15,362 nucleotides of DNA, taken from IMG/VR virus record IMGVR_UViG_2721755498_000003; one strand, written 5' to 3'. The translations under genes were made by a program, and so were the position numbers. Under the pieces are notes generated by a model. The model had not been told where the DNA came from, ran no database searches, and saw only the letters and a program-made list of their open reading frames with translations. Positions 4,770 to 14,014 of the stretch are shown here, one piece after another. Origin of the DNA: a virus (taxonomy: Duplodnaviria > Heunggongvirae > Uroviricota > Caudoviricetes). How positions within the stretch are numbered: the stretch's first letter is position 1; every line of letters begins with the position of its first letter.

Positions 4770-4827
4770 AAAAAGGGCGGCAGAGCAGTCACGGAGTAAA
4801 ACTGATACCGCCAAACGTCACCAGAAA
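4770..4827 (-). ncRNA. dicF: DicF small regulatory RNA (ftsZ-targeting sRNA) with intrinsic terminator
   Basis: Minus-strand sequence TTTCTGGTGACGTTTGGCGGTATCAGTTTTACTCCGTGACTGCTCTGCCGCCCTTTTT matches the DicF RNA as I recall it. It ends in a GGCGG...CCGCC hairpin followed by a T-run. Lies between ydfC and dicB. Confidence 0.8.
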
Positions 4828-9115: not shown

Positions 9116-9757
9116 ATGCGAAAGTTCAAAATTATTATTGAAACGGAAATAGCTGGTGGAGATTTTGAGGATGTATTCGAAGTGGACGATAACGCAACAC
9201 CTGATGAAATTCATGACGGAGCATAAGAAATTTTCTTTAACTACTGCAATTACTCATACCACGAAATAAAAGACGATGAGGAAGAACAAAGTGGCTGATT
9301 TTTGTTCAGCTAAATATAACATCAGTTTTGAAGAGCGGGATGAACTATTAATGGACTATGGTGAATTACGCGGTGGAAGTGCTGCTGATGTCGAATCCTA
9401 GCGTGATGACTATGAAGCGGGAAAAACTCCGGTCGAAGCATATTGTGATGAGTGGGGCGATGAATGAGCGAGATTAATTATCAGGAAGGGCATGAAACGG
9501 CGGGGCAAGCAAAACCAGTGGCATGGCGATATCGCTACGTGAAAAAAGCGTTACGGACTTTCAGGGGAAGTAGTGGTCTGGTGACTGGAAATATGTACCG
9601 AAAAAAGAGGATTGTAACGACAGGCCGAACTATCAAATTCAGGCCTTATTCACTGCCTCACCAGTCCCGGTTACATCAGAAGAACTGGTTAAAGCTGTGC
9701 ACTTTTATGAACAACTAAAACGCGAAAATCCACCAACATCCGGCAACTAGATTAATG
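9116..9757 (+). pseudogene. Frameshifted/interrupted remnants of small acidic phage ORFs
   Basis: Protein-like reading frames are split by stops and frame changes: 9116-9226 (MRKFKIIIETEIAGGDFEDVFEVDDNATPDEIHDGA), an in-frame continuation to 9298, 9276-9401, 9464-9718, and a +1 frame reading ...DWKYVPKKEDCNDRPNYQIQALFTASPVPVTSEELVKAVHFYEQLKRENPPTSGN ending at 9750. Confidence 0.3.
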
Positions 9758-10004
9758 GATTAACTATGTCGGTTAAACGACCAGCCAACTGAAAAAGCGG
9801 AAACCTGATTACAGGTTGCCAGATAAGGCAATGAGCTACCTGGCGCGGAACGGACTGATAAGTATGGGGAATGTTTTACGATGAACCTTTAGACTAAAGA
9901 GTTTGTAACGCTATGTAAGTGATTTTTTCTGGTTTAGATGTTTATATGTCCGGCCAAATTGAGGTGTGTTTAAATGTAATTGCACATTGATTGTAGGAGG
10001 AATA

Positions 10005-10184
10005 ATGAAAAACGCATTGCAGTTTTTGTTTGTTGCGTTCTGGTTGTTCGCATCATGTATGCCCATCATCTTCACAGCAAGGTATATGGAAAAAGTTGAT
10101 GTTTTGATATTAATATTTGGATATATAAATGCCCTTTTTTTAGGGGTGTTCATGGCGGTCATGTGCATTGAATACTGGCGGTAA
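10005..10184 (+). CDS. Small hydrophobic membrane protein (59 aa, two predicted TM segments)
   Basis: Start at ATG 10005 with a strong RBS (TAGGAGG) 4 nt upstream. Translation MKNALQFLFVAFWLFASCMPIIFTARYMEKVDVLILIFGYINALFLGVFMAVMCIEYWR. AT-rich codon usage unlike the flanking phage genes. Confidence 0.45.
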   Translation: MKNALQFLFVAFWLFASCMPIIFTARYMEKVDVLILIFGYINALFLGVFMAVMCIEYWR

Positions 10185-10518
10185 ATACAGCGAACTCCAT
10201 TGGTTTAGTTGGATATTTACTGTGCTGGACAAAAACGGTTTGCGGGGAAATCTTAGTTAAGTAGAATGACTGCGGGTGCTTGAGGCTATCTGCCTCGGGC
10301 ATGGACACCAACGGCAGATAGAGAAAAGCCCCAGTTAACATTACGCGTCCTGCAAGACGCTTAACATTAATCTGAGGCCAATTTCATGCTAGACACATGT
10401 AGGTTAGCCTCTTACGTGCCGAAAGGCACGGAGAAGCAGGCTATTGTTAACACCAAGCTGTAATGTCCCCTTTGAACCATTCTAAAATGTCCCCAGACAA
10501 TTCTCTGGGGGATTTTTC

Positions 10519-11859
10519 ATGATCAAAGAGACTGTTACGATGAGTCATAAGGAACTCCACCGACTTCAGATTATTCAGGAGTCAATTAATCGACATATTA
10601 CTCAGGAACAAGCTGCGGCACGCATTGGCATTTCTATTCGGCAGGTTAAACGTCTGGTGCAACGGTATAGAAATGAAGGGCCTTCTGGTCTGGTTTCCCA
10701 CCGACGTGGAAAGCGTCCTAATAATTCCTTTTCTACTGAATTCAGAGCAACAGTAATTTCACTCCTCAAAGGCCGTTACGCTGATTTTGGACCTACGTTT
10801 GCGTGCGAAAAATTGCGCGAGATACACGGTTTATCTTTATCCGTTGAAACTCTCAGAAAGTGGATGATAGAAGAGGGGTTATGGCGTGAACGCCGTCGTA
10901 AAATTGCCCGTATATATCAACGCCGCATGCGACGACCATCTTACGGTGAACTGATCCAGATTGATGGCTCACCTCATGACTGGTTTGAAAATCGAGGCCC
11001 CAGATGTACACTGATCGTTTTCATTGATGATGCCACCAGTGCGTTGATGGCGTTGCGTTTTGTGCCTGCTGAAACAACCCGGGCTTACATGGAAACCCTC
11101 CGGGGTTACCTTAATGATCATGGCGTACCGCTCGCTCTCTACTCTGATAGACACAGTATATTCAGGGTAAATAACCCAGAGCGGGAAGGTGAGCTGACCC
11201 AGTTCACTCGTGCGATAAAGACACTGGGCATCGAGCCAATCCATGCCAACAGCCCGCAGGCAAAAGGGCGGGTAGAGCGCGCCAATCAGACACTACAGGA
11301 CAGGCTGGTCAAAGAAATGCGGCTTCAGAATATCAGTGATATTGAAACAGCAAATGCATGGTTGCCGACCTTTATTGAAGCCTATAACAACCGGTTCGCT
11401 ACGTCGCCTCGTACTACTGATAATGCTCATCTTGATGTGCACCATTCTGAAGAGGAACTGGGTTATATCTTCAGCCTACAGGCGAAGCGCGTTCTGTCTA
11501 AAAATCTCACTTTCCAGTACAAAAGCAGTGCGTTTCAGGTACGCAGTGAGAGCCGGGGATATCGACTTAGGCATTCGGTTGTTACTGTATGCGAGAACTT
11601 TGACGGTGAAATTAACGTTCTGTATGACGGGAAAGCGCTGGGCTGGGAAAAGTATGTTGATGGCCCGGAGCCTATACCACTGGATGATGAAAAGAGTGTC
11701 CATGAACGAGTGGATAATGCCCGTATTGATTTACGCTCAAAATACTATGTTAAACCTAAAGCTGACCATCCCTGGCTTACGCGCCGAACGCAAAGTCATC
11801 AGCAAGTTAAGCCCCCGAAGTTACCTAAAAAGAAGCCTGATCCCGATAAAAAAGATTGA
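10519..11859 (+). CDS. DDE transposase with N-terminal HTH and rve-type integrase core (single-ORF IS, ISNCY/IS1202-like)
   Basis: 446-aa ORF with RBS GGGGGA 7 nt upstream. HTH region QEQAAARIGISIRQVKRLV. Catalytic triad candidates: D in IQIDGSPHDW, D in LYSDRHSIF, E in KGRVERANQTLQ. Basic Lys/Pro-rich C-terminal tail. Family assignment is from memory, not a search. Confidence 0.85.
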   Translation: MIKETVTMSHKELHRLQIIQESINRHITQEQAAARIGISIRQVKRLVQRYRNEGPSGLVSHRRGKRPNNSFSTEFRATVISLLKGRYADFGPTFACEKLREIHGLSLSVETLRKWMIEEGLWRERRRKIARIYQRRMRRPSYGELIQIDGSPHDWFENRGPRCTLIVFIDDATSALMALRFVPAETTRAYMETLRGYLNDHGVPLALYSDRHSIFRVNNPEREGELTQFTRAIKTLGIEPIHANSPQAKGRVERANQTLQDRLVKEMRLQNISDIETANAWLPTFIEAYNNRFATSPRTTDNAHLDVHHSEEELGYIFSLQAKRVLSKNLTFQYKSSAFQVRSESRGYRLRHSVVTVCENFDGEINVLYDGKALGWEKYVDGPEPIPLDDEKSVHERVDNARIDLRSKYYVKPKADHPWLTRRTQSHQQVKPPKLPKKKPDPDKKD

Positions 11860-11913
11860 AACCAAGATCGATTCGGTTGAGTGCATATCCATTCATAGGG
11901 TAGATTCTTAAGT

Positions 11914-11979
11914 CGCGTTTCTGGTGTTCATTTTCGGGTGGTTTGTTACTTGTTTTACCGGGGATATGCCAGAAACGCG
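11914..11979. repeat. Perfect 11-bp inverted repeat (CGCGTTTCTGG ... CCAGAAACGCG) with 44-nt loop
   Basis: Arms at 11914-11924 and 11969-11979, 55 nt downstream of the transposase stop. The loop contains the alternative right-end candidate. Confidence 0.6.
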
Positions 11980-12254
11980 CTGAGTCAGTCTGGGCGGTGC
12001 GCGTAATGAGGCGTTATGGTAAATAGCCTATGCTAATGTCCGCTAAGAGCAAGAAGCGGAAGTTGGCATTTTTGTGGACTGTCCCCACAAAAGTGACTAC
12101 AGAAATAGTTGCAATTCATAATTGATCATGGGTTGTCAGTTAAACTCGTGGCGATTTAAATAGACTAATTGGGAGTGCGTCCATTACTTATATCTTGTAA
12201 TGTTAACTATCAGAAATGATACAAAGATAATATGTCTTTAAAGAAAAGGCTGAT

Positions 12255-12281
12255 GGCGAAAAGTGGCCCGATGAGGGCCAC
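12255..12281 (-). terminator. Probable intrinsic terminator of flxA
   Basis: Minus-strand hairpin GTGGCCC-TCATC-GGGCCAC followed by TTTTCG, immediately after the flxA stop. Confidence 0.45.
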
Positions 12282-12295
12282 AATACGGCTGTCAC

Positions 12296-12628
12296 TTAGA
12301 CGTAAATATCAATGGTGCCAGCGGTATTTGTATCGTCTTTTTTCTCTTCTTTTTTATCAGGCTGAACTGTCGCGTCTTCATTCTTTTTCTCTGCCTGCTG
12401 CCTTAACAACTGCTCCAGTTGAGCCCAGAGGCTTTCAATTTGCTTCTGTACCAATGCAGCCATTTCTTTTTTCTGCTGTGTCGTCATCCCCTCTTCCGAT
12501 GAGATTTTCCCAAGCTTTTCAGTCAGCACCTGAATTTGTCTTGTGATTTTGGCTATTTCTGATGTTCCTTCCGGGGCGGAGTTGTTTGAAATAACGGTTG
12601 AGGTATTTCCCTGAATTGTGACAGACAT
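12296..12628 (-). CDS. flxA: FlxA-like protein (FliA/sigma-28-regulated, Gln/Lys-rich coiled-coil-like)
   Basis: 110-aa ORF (MSVTIQGNTSTVISNNSAPEGTSEIAKITRQIQVLTEKL...) with AAGGAG RBS and a canonical sigma-28 promoter immediately upstream. Confidence 0.75.
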   Translation of the reverse strand: MSVTIQGNTSTVISNNSAPEGTSEIAKITRQIQVLTEKLGKISSEEGMTTQQKKEMAALVQKQIESLWAQLEQLLRQQAEKKNEDATVQPDKKEEKKDDTNTAGTIDIYV

Positions 12629-12651
12629 AGATTTCTCCTTTTAAAAAAGCA

Positions 12652-12678
12652 CTATCGGCATGAACAAAAAAATCTTTA
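12652..12678 (-). promoter_or_regulatory. Sigma-28 (FliA) promoter for flxA
   Basis: Minus-strand TAAA-N15-GCCGATAG (consensus TAAA-N15-GCCGATAA). -35 TAAA is the complement of 12675-12678; -10 is the complement of 12652-12659; spacer exactly 15 nt; about 24 nt before the flxA ATG. Confidence 0.7.
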
Positions 12679-12830
12679 ATCGTATTTCTTGTGTCATTAA
12701 TTGTTTGATGTTCAGATTGTTTTCCTCGCGGGCTGGCGCGCCTCAGAAAGTAAAGCTTGTTGACAGGGGTAAACGTTCGGCAATAATTTTCTGCCGCATG
12801 CGGGTGTTGCATAAAACGTGTTACGTTCCT

Positions 12831-13136
12831 TTATCGACAGGTCAGGTCACCGCTCACCCGCCGACGAGAAAGCAACACTGACATGCTAAAGCAAAAAATA
12901 GATGAATAAGTTGAGTTGTGCATATGTAGCCTGACCGTCACAAAGTATATGGTGTCTGTACCAGTAAGATGATGGCCGGACTCTTTAAAAACGAGCTGAC
13001 CTGCACAATACAGGATGGACTTAGCAATGGCTGCTCCTGGCAGAAAGCGGACAGTGATCACCGTTCTTACGACTACTTTCTGACTTCCTTCGTGACTTGC
13101 CCTAAGCATGTTGTAGTGCGATACTTGTAATGACAT
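12831..13136 (-). CDS. YdfV-like hypothetical ORF (101 aa), doubtful
   Basis: 101-aa ORF between flxA and relB, matching the size and position of the ydfV annotation in Qin. No clear RBS; its 5' end overlaps the relB promoter; composition is not convincingly protein-like. Confidence 0.3.
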   Translation of the reverse strand: MSLQVSHYNMLRASHEGSQKVVVRTVITVRFLPGAAIAKSILYCAGQLVFKESGHHLTGTDTIYFVTVRLHMHNSTYSSIFCFSMSVLLSRRRVSGDLTCR

Positions 13137-13148
13137 TTGTAATTACAA
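13097..13148 (+). promoter_or_regulatory. relBE promoter and relO operator
   Basis: -35 TTGCCC (13097-13102), 17-nt spacer, -10 GATACT (13120-13125). Repeated TTGTAAT hexads including the perfect palindrome TTGTAATTACAA (13137-13148), just upstream of the relB RBS AGAGGTG. Confidence 0.7.
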
Positions 13149-13160
13149 GAGGTGTAAGAC

Positions 13161-13400
13161 ATGGGTAGCATTAACCTGCGTATTGACGATGAACTTAAAG
13201 CGCGTTCTTACGCCGCGCTTGAAAAAATGGGTGTAACTCCTTCTGAAGCGCTTCGTCTCATGCTCGAGTATATCGCTGACAATGAACGCTTGCCGTTCAA
13301 ACAGACACTCCTGAGTGATGAAGATGCTGAACTTGTGGAGATAGTGAAAGAACGGCTTCGTAATCCTAAGCCAGTACGTGTGACGCTGGATGAACTCTGA
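13161..13400 (+). CDS. relB: RelB antitoxin
   Basis: 79-aa ORF MGSINLRIDDELKARSYAALEKMGVTPSEALRLMLEYIADNERLPFKQ..., recognisably RelB. Its stop overlaps the relE start in a TGATG arrangement. Confidence 0.9.
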   Translation: MGSINLRIDDELKARSYAALEKMGVTPSEALRLMLEYIADNERLPFKQTLLSDEDAELVEIVKERLRNPKPVRVTLDEL

Positions 13401-13687
13401 TGGCGTATTTTCTGGATTTTGACGAGCGGGCACTAAAGGAATGGCGAAAGCTGGGCTCGACGGTACGTGAACAGTTGAAAAAGAAGCTGGTTGAAGTACT
13501 TGAGTCACCCCGGATTGAAGCAAACAAGCTCCGTGGTATGCCTGATTGTTACAAGATTAAGCTCCGATCTTCAGGCTATCGCCTTGTATACCAGGTTATA
13601 GACGAGAAAGTTGTCGTTTTCGTGATTTCTGTTGGGAAAAGAGAACGCTCGGAAGTATATAGCGAGGCGGTCAAACGCATTCTCTGA
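13400..13687 (+). CDS. relE: RelE toxin (ribosome-dependent mRNA interferase)
   Basis: 95-aa ORF MAYFLDFDERALKEWRKLGSTVREQLKKKLVEVLESPRIEANKLRGMPDCYKIKLRSSGYRLVYQVIDEKVVVFVISVGKRERSEVYSEAVKRIL, recognisably RelE. Confidence 0.9.
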   Translation: MAYFLDFDERALKEWRKLGSTVREQLKKKLVEVLESPRIEANKLRGMPDCYKIKLRSSGYRLVYQVIDEKVVVFVISVGKRERSEVYSEAVKRIL

Positions 13688-13758
13688 ACCAAAGCATGAC
13701 ATCTCTGTTTCGCACCGAAGGTGACACTTCTGCTTTGCGTTGACAGGAGAAGCAGGCT

Positions 13759-13914
13759 ATGAAGCAGCAAAAGGCGATGTTAATCGCCCTGATCGTCATC
13801 TGTTTAACCGTCATAGTGACGGCACTGGTAACGAGGAAAGACCTCTGCGAGGTACGAATCCGAACCGGCCAGACGGAGGTCGCTGTCTTCACAGCTTACG
13901 AACCTGAGGAGTAA
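13759..13914 (+). CDS. hokD: Hok-family small membrane toxin (HokD/RelF)
   Basis: Below the six-frame size cutoff. Hand translation gives MKQQKAMLIALIVICLTVIVTALVTRKDLCEVRIRTGQTEVAVFTAYEPEE (51 aa), with GGAG RBS 8 nt upstream. A 15-codon upstream ORF (13697-13744) ends 14 nt before the start. Confidence 0.8.
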   Translation: MKQQKAMLIALIVICLTVIVTALVTRKDLCEVRIRTGQTEVAVFTAYEPEE

Positions 13915-13984
13915 GAGACTCGGCGAGTGAGAAATCCCTCGCCACCTCTGATGTGGCAGGCATCCTCAACGCACCCGCACTTAA

Positions 13985-14014
13985 CCCGCTTCGGCGGGTT
14001 TTTGTTTTTATTTT
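13985..14014 (+). terminator. Rho-independent terminator after relBE-hokD
   Basis: CCCGC-TTCG-GCGGG hairpin (UUCG tetraloop) followed by TTTTTGTTTTTATTTT. Confidence 0.8.

Follow-up and report, generated by a model that had tools for sequence, protein, structure and literature searches.

What, if anything, does a short reading frame encode when it sits in a lambdoid prophage, downstream of two pseudogenes and upstream of a transposase gene? We addressed this question for a frame of 59 codons, hereafter ORF59 (ORF, open reading frame), found in the IMG/VR virus record IMGVR_UViG_2721755498_000003 (Caudoviricetes). We call the whole 15.4-kb stretch that was analysed (15,362 nucleotides) the window; it represents a Qin-type lambdoid prophage of Escherichia coli, inserted beside rspB. 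The comparison of homologous sequences indicates that ORF59 very probably encodes a protein, or did so until recently. The broader account that we favour, in which we place moderate confidence, is that ORF59 is an unannotated small membrane protein gene, belonging to a small family restricted to the Qin- and Rac-type lambdoid prophages found in Escherichia and Shigella, and includes the proposals on its expression and mode of action that are made below.

The initial annotation of this DNA, a short description made from the sequence without database searches, gave a 59-residue product for ORF59, which matches our translation exactly. It also pointed to a TAGGAGG ribosome-binding site and to an AT-rich composition, and both are there: the Shine-Dalgarno (SD) motif lies just upstream of the ATG (Table 1), and the G+C content reaches the minimum of the window between positions 9901 and 10200 (0.363). 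On the two strands of the whole window, AGGAGG precedes a start codon at a distance of 3-10 nucleotides in two cases, and this start codon is an ATG only at ORF59. The motif varies among relatives, since AGGGGG replaces AGGAGG in 40 of 137 related loci (position 9998). In such T-rich DNA, length and hydrophobicity by themselves say little in favour of a gene. ORF59 nevertheless exceeds chance expectation because it combines a strong ribosome-binding site with a conserved homologue.

This homologue is a second subfamily (P0081/P0086, MRKILMYLCISIWIVISCVPIILTSEYLTEASIMALMFGHANALCIGVFISIIYIECWR), retrieved by phmmer among 1.84 billion representative proteins (E = 1e-8) and confirmed by a profile search and by tblastn (E = 3e-11). 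Its proteins, which we call the paralogue, also have 59 residues and are 41% identical to ORF59 over residues 1-59, without gaps and with the same start and stop. The class of the residue is kept at 53 of the 59 positions. Three aligned sequences share 23 invariant columns, of which ten lie in the first half of the protein (M1, L5, L8, W13, S17, C18, P20, I21, I22 and T24) and the others in the second (L36, F38, G39, N42, A43, L44, G47, V48, F49, I55, E56, W58 and R59). A profile search of IMG/VR found the same loci again and no third subfamily, and neither phmmer nor the profile and further searches gave a homologue outside Escherichia and Shigella.

The check for conservation proposed in the initial annotation thus revealed homology beyond this locus. 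The protein had been called an orphan that could not be recognised, and this holds as far as described families are concerned: scans of Pfam, NCBIfam, PHROGs and PADLOC with ORF59 gave no match (nor did PADLOC with the paralogue), the profile search of the PDB gave none either, and the comparison of its structural model with viral structures (Foldseek against BFVD) returned nothing more specific than helical hairpins of a generic kind (best E = 0.77). The term orphan does not hold with respect to the second subfamily, which, like the first, lies within prophage DNA of Escherichia and Shigella.

The divergence between the two subfamilies provides a coding signature. We compared the ORF59 of the window with the paralogous locus L162 over 180 nucleotides, of which 59% are identical in an alignment free of gaps. 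Per codon position, identity is 58% at the first, 70% at the second and 48% at the third. The proportions of nonsynonymous and synonymous differences (pN and pS) are 0.35 and 0.70, and the ratio of the corresponding rates (dN/dS) is around 0.24, with a saturated dS. Of the six frames, that of ORF59 alone is uninterrupted in both sequences; L162 has two stops in the antisense frame which the window leaves open. When 74 random substitutions were simulated, the frame remained open with a probability of 0.027, and a skew between positions 3 and 2 at least as large as the observed one arose with a probability of 0.009. Several indels separate the two loci in both flanks and none lies within ORF59. 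Judged by this alignment, ORF59 has the traits of a coding gene: frame, start and stop are kept without indels, and dN is below dS. Among the full-length Qin-type copies, 152 out of 153 are intact, a proportion in which intact copies are over-represented because the related loci were retrieved through peptide matches.

Several observations weigh against this interpretation. First, the homology between the subfamilies extends around 135 nucleotides upstream and 38 nucleotides downstream of ORF59 at a similar identity (~61%), so that a part of the conservation is not specific to coding. Second, there are two diverged lineages only, and the signature is thus a single pairwise comparison with saturated dS. 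Third, the 152 full-length Qin-allele copies have eight variable sites, which comprise one synonymous and seven nonsynonymous changes (A16V, V31I, I37M and Y40H at 14-26%, plus three singletons). This 7:1 ratio is compatible with neutrality (P = 0.22) but not with omega <= 0.2 (P = 0.001), so that purifying selection is not apparent among close alleles. Fourth, PGAP annotated ORF59 in none of the 60 rows listed, and called neither subfamily in the 90 RefSeq rows inspected. Fifth, a scan of both strands for sigma-70-like promoters found none from 9400 to 10600, where a weak or atypical one is possible. Finally, a full-text literature search by peptide sequence had no match, and the ORF59 segment is absent from K-12 and from BL21(DE3) (whose Qin prophage was checked), therefore standard ribosome-profiling (Ribo-seq) datasets are silent on it. 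Surveys of small proteins in K-12 probably could not have found it, given this absence. Three of the variants (I37M, Y40H and Y57C) switch to the residue of the paralogue, which suggests that these sites are tolerant, and ORF59 may now be under relaxed selection in this cryptic prophage.

Could ORF59 then be spurious, i.e., a chance frame that follows an AGGAGG, owes its hydrophobicity to T-rich codons and has as "paralogue" a piece of homologous non-coding DNA? The window does contain many non-genic ORFs of at least 40 codons, the variation within the Qin allele looks neutral, the flanks are homologous between lineages, PGAP makes no call, and one divergent assembly (L005) has frameshifts, though it is apparently rich in errors. 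Yet a chance frame would have to keep its start, its stop and its register over 41% nucleotide divergence without an indel, while each of the five other frames is closed in at least one lineage. It would also have to show the skew between codon positions and the low probabilities given above, to coincide with the only strong SD-ATG pair of the window, and to be intact in nearly all full-length copies. We thus regard a spurious frame as unlikely.

If ORF59 is translated, its product is predicted to be a small membrane protein. The initial annotation had noted two hydrophobic segments, and these are seen both in the Kyte-Doolittle profile (approximately residues 4-25 and 33-56; 15-residue windows exceed 1.8 for 4-25 and 31-58) and in the AlphaFold2 model made from the single sequence, a helical hairpin (residues 3-24 and 31-58) with a mean predicted local distance difference test score (pLDDT) of 82.6. 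A polar loop, TARYMEKVD, separates the two segments, and the grand average of hydropathy (GRAVY) is 1.27. With two segments of transmembrane (TM) length and a short polar loop, the model has the build of a small helical-hairpin inner-membrane protein. Lysine and arginine occur at the N-terminus and the loop is neutral to acidic, a pattern that is clearest in the paralogue. This distribution of charges suggests that both termini are probably cytoplasmic, with a short periplasmic loop. The C-terminus (...CIEYWR) extends only three residues beyond TM2. Both subfamilies keep small and polar residues within the helices. The conserved residues of TM2 have the spacing G39xxxA43xxxG47, plus an asparagine, and the motifs S-C-x-P in the first helix and F-G-x-x-N-A-L-x-x-G-V-F in the second suggest packing between helices.

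The genetic neighbourhood of ORF59 is shared by the two subfamilies. The initial annotation had placed ORF59 alone between decayed ORFs and the transposase region. There are indeed two PGAP pseudogenes upstream and an ISNCY/IS1202-like transposase gene downstream, but ORF59 is not alone, since it is followed by the leader of a hok locus. The Rfam match to RF01794 at 10274-10444 is full-length, and this region is 92% identical to the annotated hokW/mokW/sokW locus of phage 933W. Although Rfam calls RF01794 "sok antitoxin", the 157-nucleotide consensus of this model has the sense of the hok mRNA and stops at the AUG of hok, and the match therefore marks the hok leader on the strand of the hit, not the strand of the Sok RNA. 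A promoter-like site, whose placement follows from where the Rfam match starts, begins 55 nucleotides past the stop of ORF59 and ends 6 nucleotides before the start of the leader. The hok gene that originally followed, hokD, now lies more than 3 kb away, beyond an insertion that we describe below. The Rfam scan of the window gave no RF01794 match beside hokD at 13759, which is consistent with hokD having lost its leader. Among 158 related loci, ORF59, the leader and an intact hok are uninterrupted in 80, and 58 have the insertion as in the window. In relatives free of the insertion sequence (IS), the regions equivalent to 9798-10444 and 13745-14009 of the window are contiguous, overlapping by 15-16 bp. 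Since the leader runs into hokD in these relatives, the ancestral order is ORF59 directly upstream of an intact hok/sok locus.

The paralogue occupies an equivalent place in a very different setting. It is located in the Rac attachment region, flanked by ttcA and uspF, within a heavily deleted prophage remnant of around 2 kb in B2-type strains (e.g., positions 1484-3669 of L173 in E. coli ST131, also L165-L172), where PGAP annotates no intact gene. The remnant consists, in this order, of an integrase fragment, a fragment of DUF1627 (ydaW), a 3' fragment of lygF, the paralogue, a hok fragment and a broken sit permease gene. The hok fragment starts 55 nucleotides past the paralogue and corresponds to the middle of the hok ORF (81% identical to 13827-13888 of the window). 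Because the remnant keeps the fragments of lygF and hok around the paralogue, the placement relative to these two genes is common to both subfamilies. The paralogue was not found in an intact phage context: there were no phage records and a single match, at a contig end, in IMG/VR.

Which function could such a protein have? The initial annotation listed toxins, superinfection-exclusion factors and holin-like peptides as options. All of them are compatible with a small hydrophobic hairpin, and nothing that we found argues specifically for any one. In the account that we favour, ORF59 would be translated, by virtue of its strong SD, from early transcripts that read through the locus after prophage induction or infection, a route that we propose because a promoter of its own was not detected. 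The 59-residue hairpin would insert into the inner membrane and would act through helix-helix packing, either by self-association or by binding a partner in the membrane. Any phenotype would then be that of an accessory phage function, non-essential to the phage.

ORF59 could alternatively be a protective gene of the moron type, expressed in the lysogen as a superinfection-exclusion or anti-phage membrane protein. The inner-membrane exclusion proteins Imm of T4 and gp15 of HK97 are small, have two TM segments and play a non-essential accessory role. ORF59 resembles them as a small phage-encoded protein with a predicted inner-membrane location and a proposed accessory role, and its AT-rich composition is unlike that of its neighbours. 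The paralogue is moreover the only intact ORF of a degraded remnant present in 1045 genomes, which would fit domestication. On the other hand, ORF59 has no match of sequence or family to these proteins (PADLOC and Pfam, Imm-type families included), and we detected neither a terminator nor a promoter of its own from which a lysogen could express it. The substitutions in the Qin allele look neutral, and the intactness of the paralogue carries little weight because the B2 copies are at least 99% identical. We find such a protective role improbable.

The constant neighbourhood of hok is the sole lead to a more specific function. The ORF59 family might be a partner of hok/sok, which potentiates, gates or protects against Hok at induction, or an independent, new toxin with two TM segments. 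The linkage may be mere synteny, because hok is common without ORF59, being present without it in most phages (e.g., 933W and the Rac-type locus L007). Taken together, these possibilities strike us as quite unlikely. If one of them were true, ORF59 and hok would make a two-gene cassette for membrane damage, unannotated by RefSeq, in up to about half of the complete E. coli genomes.

A type I toxin in the strict sense would be a membrane-depolarising peptide under the control of an antisense RNA, analogous to hok/sok. Small hydrophobic peptides are often toxic when over-produced, and toxins of the Hok/Gef family have around 50 residues and a single TM helix. Like HokD (RelF), ORF59 is a small, very hydrophobic, prophage-encoded peptide, predicted to lie in the inner membrane, and it's adjacent to hok in both subfamilies. 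Unlike Hok/Gef, it has two helices, shows no sequence similarity (no match to the Pfam family Hok_Gef at E <= 1, nor to another toxin family), and lacks mok, sok, tac or fbi-type elements in an mRNA of its own; hok is, besides, widespread without it. The region 9400-10600 has no promoter-like site for an antisense RNA in the scan of both strands. The RNA from 9930 to 10273 folds no better than shuffled sequences (z = -0.79) and leaves the SD unpaired in the minimum free energy structure, whereas the mRNA of such a module would be structured and hide the SD. The Rfam match downstream belongs to a separate locus, that of hok, and the paralogue has stayed intact in a remnant whose surroundings are deleted or broken. 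A type I toxin is thus very unlikely.

A holin-like protein or lysis accessory, permeabilising the membrane together with Hok at the end of the lytic cycle, is just as poorly placed. Class II holins and pinholins, such as S21 68, have two TM helices and a spacing of small residues (G/A) in TM2. ORF59 recalls them in both respects, with its G39xxxA43xxxG47 motif. The synteny with hok in both subfamilies would fit, and hokW, which is closely related to this hok, reportedly contributes to lysis and to the release of phage in Sp5 (PMC8621323). But ORF59 lies in the early region, and the lysis cassette lies several kb downstream, past the window. The protein matches no holin family in Pfam or PHROGs, has neither a charged C-terminal tail nor a dual-start motif, and is lacking from most phages that carry hok. 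We give this explanation very little credence. A structured RNA in place of a protein was rejected, given the z-score of the fold.

The favoured account, an unannotated small membrane protein gene, places ORF59 beside other small phage membrane proteins, which it resembles in kind while being a member of no named family. It can also be compared with DicB, YdfD, KilR and the YnaM/YnfT family, which are likewise encoded by short genes of the Qin and Rac prophages, of a kind that annotation easily overlooks (in Qin, YnfT, YnfU, YnfQ and YnfR do have annotations). ORF59 is unrelated in sequence to all of these and is absent from K-12 and BL21(DE3). Activities have been described for DicB, KilR and YdfD. 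Its sequences were already in public databases, where submitters to GenBank sometimes label them "hypothetical protein" or "membrane protein" (E. coli and four Shigella species). What this analysis adds is the evidence for coding, a second subfamily, a conserved place beside hok and the fact that RefSeq omits both subfamilies. If translated, ORF59 is another small membrane protein missed by standard annotation. The main outcome is a correction of annotation, with one uncharacterised family added and no sign of an unusual mechanism.

The two subfamilies were counted in complete E. coli genomes. The DNA of ORF59 occurs in 1566 of 5426 complete genomes, with at least 95% identity in every match, and the paralogue in 1045 of the 5426, with at least 99% identity in 1039; ST131 and O4:H5 are among its listed matches. 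Carriers include ST131, other B2 strains and Shigella. Three E. coli phage records of GenBank also contain ORF59, PhiR42_1 (complete), vB_EcoS-640R1 and vB_EcoS-813R8 (both partial), and all three annotate the antisense ORF in its place. Some individual genomes deserve mention. The full early region of Qin, including ORF59, is present in NZ_CP026085.1 (L001; 4.83 Mb), labelled DH5alpha. The K-12 strain ER2796 matches the window only from 11675 onward, and the strain label of NZ_CP026085.1 may be wrong. Several single-base indels affect ORF59 or the paralogue in L005 (2986-3122, E. coli ECMA0423) and in L163 (6001-6204, GCA_013422975.1), where the neighbouring genes are fragmented too. These are probably errors of sequencing or assembly, not true pseudogenes, and both loci were left out of the selection counts.

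ORF59 has the position and strand of an accessory gene of the lambdoid early-right (nin-like) region. On the minus strand, the prophage encodes integrase, excisionase, exonuclease, ydfD, dicB, DicF, ydfC, ydfB, ydfA and dicA. The plus strand has dicC, a YdaT-like gene, an O-like replication gene, DUF977/lygF, a methyltransferase gene, the two PGAP pseudogenes and ORF59, followed by the ISNCY transposase gene, ydfW, flxA and ydfV (the latter two on the minus strand), relB, relE, hokD and rem. ORF59 is co-oriented with the rightward early operon (dicC, O, DUF977, rem, ydfU and ydfT) and lies between the replication genes and the gene of the Q antiterminator (ydfT, just past the end of the window). 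The lysis genes essD, ydfR, rrrQ and rzpQ come several kb after ORF59, outside the window on its right side.

Table 1. Features of the window discussed in the text, with positions in the 15,362-nucleotide stretch.
Feature	Position	Strand	Basis and remarks
DicF	4775-4826	- (listed in minus-strand order)	Rfam
Shine-Dalgarno TAGGAGG	9994..10000	+	AGGAGG at 9995-10000; 4-nt spacer to ATG; read directly
ORF59 coding sequence, 59 codons, ATG to TAA	10005..10184	+	product MKNALQFLFVAFWLFASCMPIIFTARYMEKVDVLILIFGYINALFLGVFMAVMCIEYWR, predicted small two-helix membrane protein
TM1 (predicted), codons 4-25	10014..10079	+	hydropathy, AlphaFold2 helix 3-24; conserved W13, S17, C18, P20, I21, I22, T24
TM2 (predicted), codons 33-56	10101..10172	+	hydropathy, AlphaFold2 helix 31-58; conserved F38-G39, N42-A43-L44, G47-V48-F49, I55-E56
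hok promoter-like site, TTGCGG-16 nt-TAGAAT	10240..10267	+	read from sequence; below threshold of the promoter scan; placement from the Rfam match, which starts at 10274
hok/mok/sok leader, 5' part of hok mRNA; mok start at 10387	10274..10444	+	Rfam RF01794, 104 bits, E 2e-24
15-bp direct repeat GGAGAAGCAGGCTAT, left copy	10430..10444	.	repeat search, two copies 100% identical
Insertion, 3301 bp	10445..13745	+	ISEsa1-like (IS1202 group/ISNCY) transposase, ydfW, flxA, ydfV, relB, relE
15-bp direct repeat GGAGAAGCAGGCTAT, right copy	13746..13760	.	overlaps hokD start codon
hokD (relF) ORF, the hok originally after ORF59 and leader	13759..13914	+	PGAP annotation of equivalent region

Other readings of the DNA at ORF59 were considered and rejected. 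Some submitters use a GTG start at 9966, which gives 72 residues. Against it, the start of the paralogue corresponds to the ATG of ORF59, and it is this ATG that the SD serves. ORF59 as a piece of a larger, decayed gene was also discarded, as no larger ORF or protein match covers this DNA in any relative. An antisense ORF of 85 codons (9911-10168, minus strand) is the one annotated, as "hornerin" or as hypothetical, in the three phage records. It runs against the direction of the operon, has no PHROG match and contains two stops in the paralogous locus. A second antisense ORF, of 60 codons (10159-10341, minus strand), matches phrog_7511 (E = 2e-32) and is treated as an artefact of annotation because it is antisense to the conserved hok leader. 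False gene calls made on conserved hok leaders may be the source of phrog_7511.

We made two further observations on the surroundings of ORF59 and hok. A terminator-like hairpin with a T-run (9802-9817, minus strand) lies 190 nucleotides upstream of ORF59, inside a PGAP frameshifted pseudogene, and we know of no minus-strand transcript that it would end. In the Qin prophage of BL21(DE3) (L174, 31069-31845), hokD is only around 260 nucleotides from the DUF977 gene, with neither the relBE/IS insertion nor the ORF59 module. The hokD of B strains may thus still have its leader, unlike that of K-12.

The insertion that now separates the leader from hokD looks like the outcome of a single transposition event with relBE as passenger. 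It includes an ISEsa1-like transposase gene (10519-11859) and is flanked by a perfect direct repeat of 15 bp, GGAGAAGCAGGCTAT, which is single-copy in the uninterrupted relatives L004-L007. Its ends are imperfect inverted repeats of 25 bp (18 of 25 positions identical), and the best inverted match to its left end in the whole window is at 13721-13745, abutting the right copy of the direct repeat. The perfect direct repeat, the inverted ends and the single repeat in IS-free relatives together suggest one event, in which the 15-bp repeat looks like the target-site duplication of the 3.3-kb unit. The event would have separated the start codon of hok from its leader and from mok, producing the order relB-relE-hokD. 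The integration of relBE into an ancestral hokD/mok locus is already stated in a passage of PMC6379469, which cites Ramisetty and Santhosh 2016. The left end contains the subterminal direct repeats ACCAAGCTGTAATGTCCCC and ACCATTCTAAAATGTCCCC (10452-10494), and two similar motifs can be recognised by eye at the right end, inverted and ending in ATGTCA and GTGTCA. These subterminal repeats are possibly transposase-binding sites. ISEsa1 proper is listed with 1609 bp and no detectable target duplication (PMC10132070). The 3.3-kb unit, with its passengers and 15-bp repeat, differs from this listed element and may thus merit a separate look. The full 3301-bp unit is present in 759 of the 5426 complete E. 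coli genomes, and 134 of the matching places are on plasmids.

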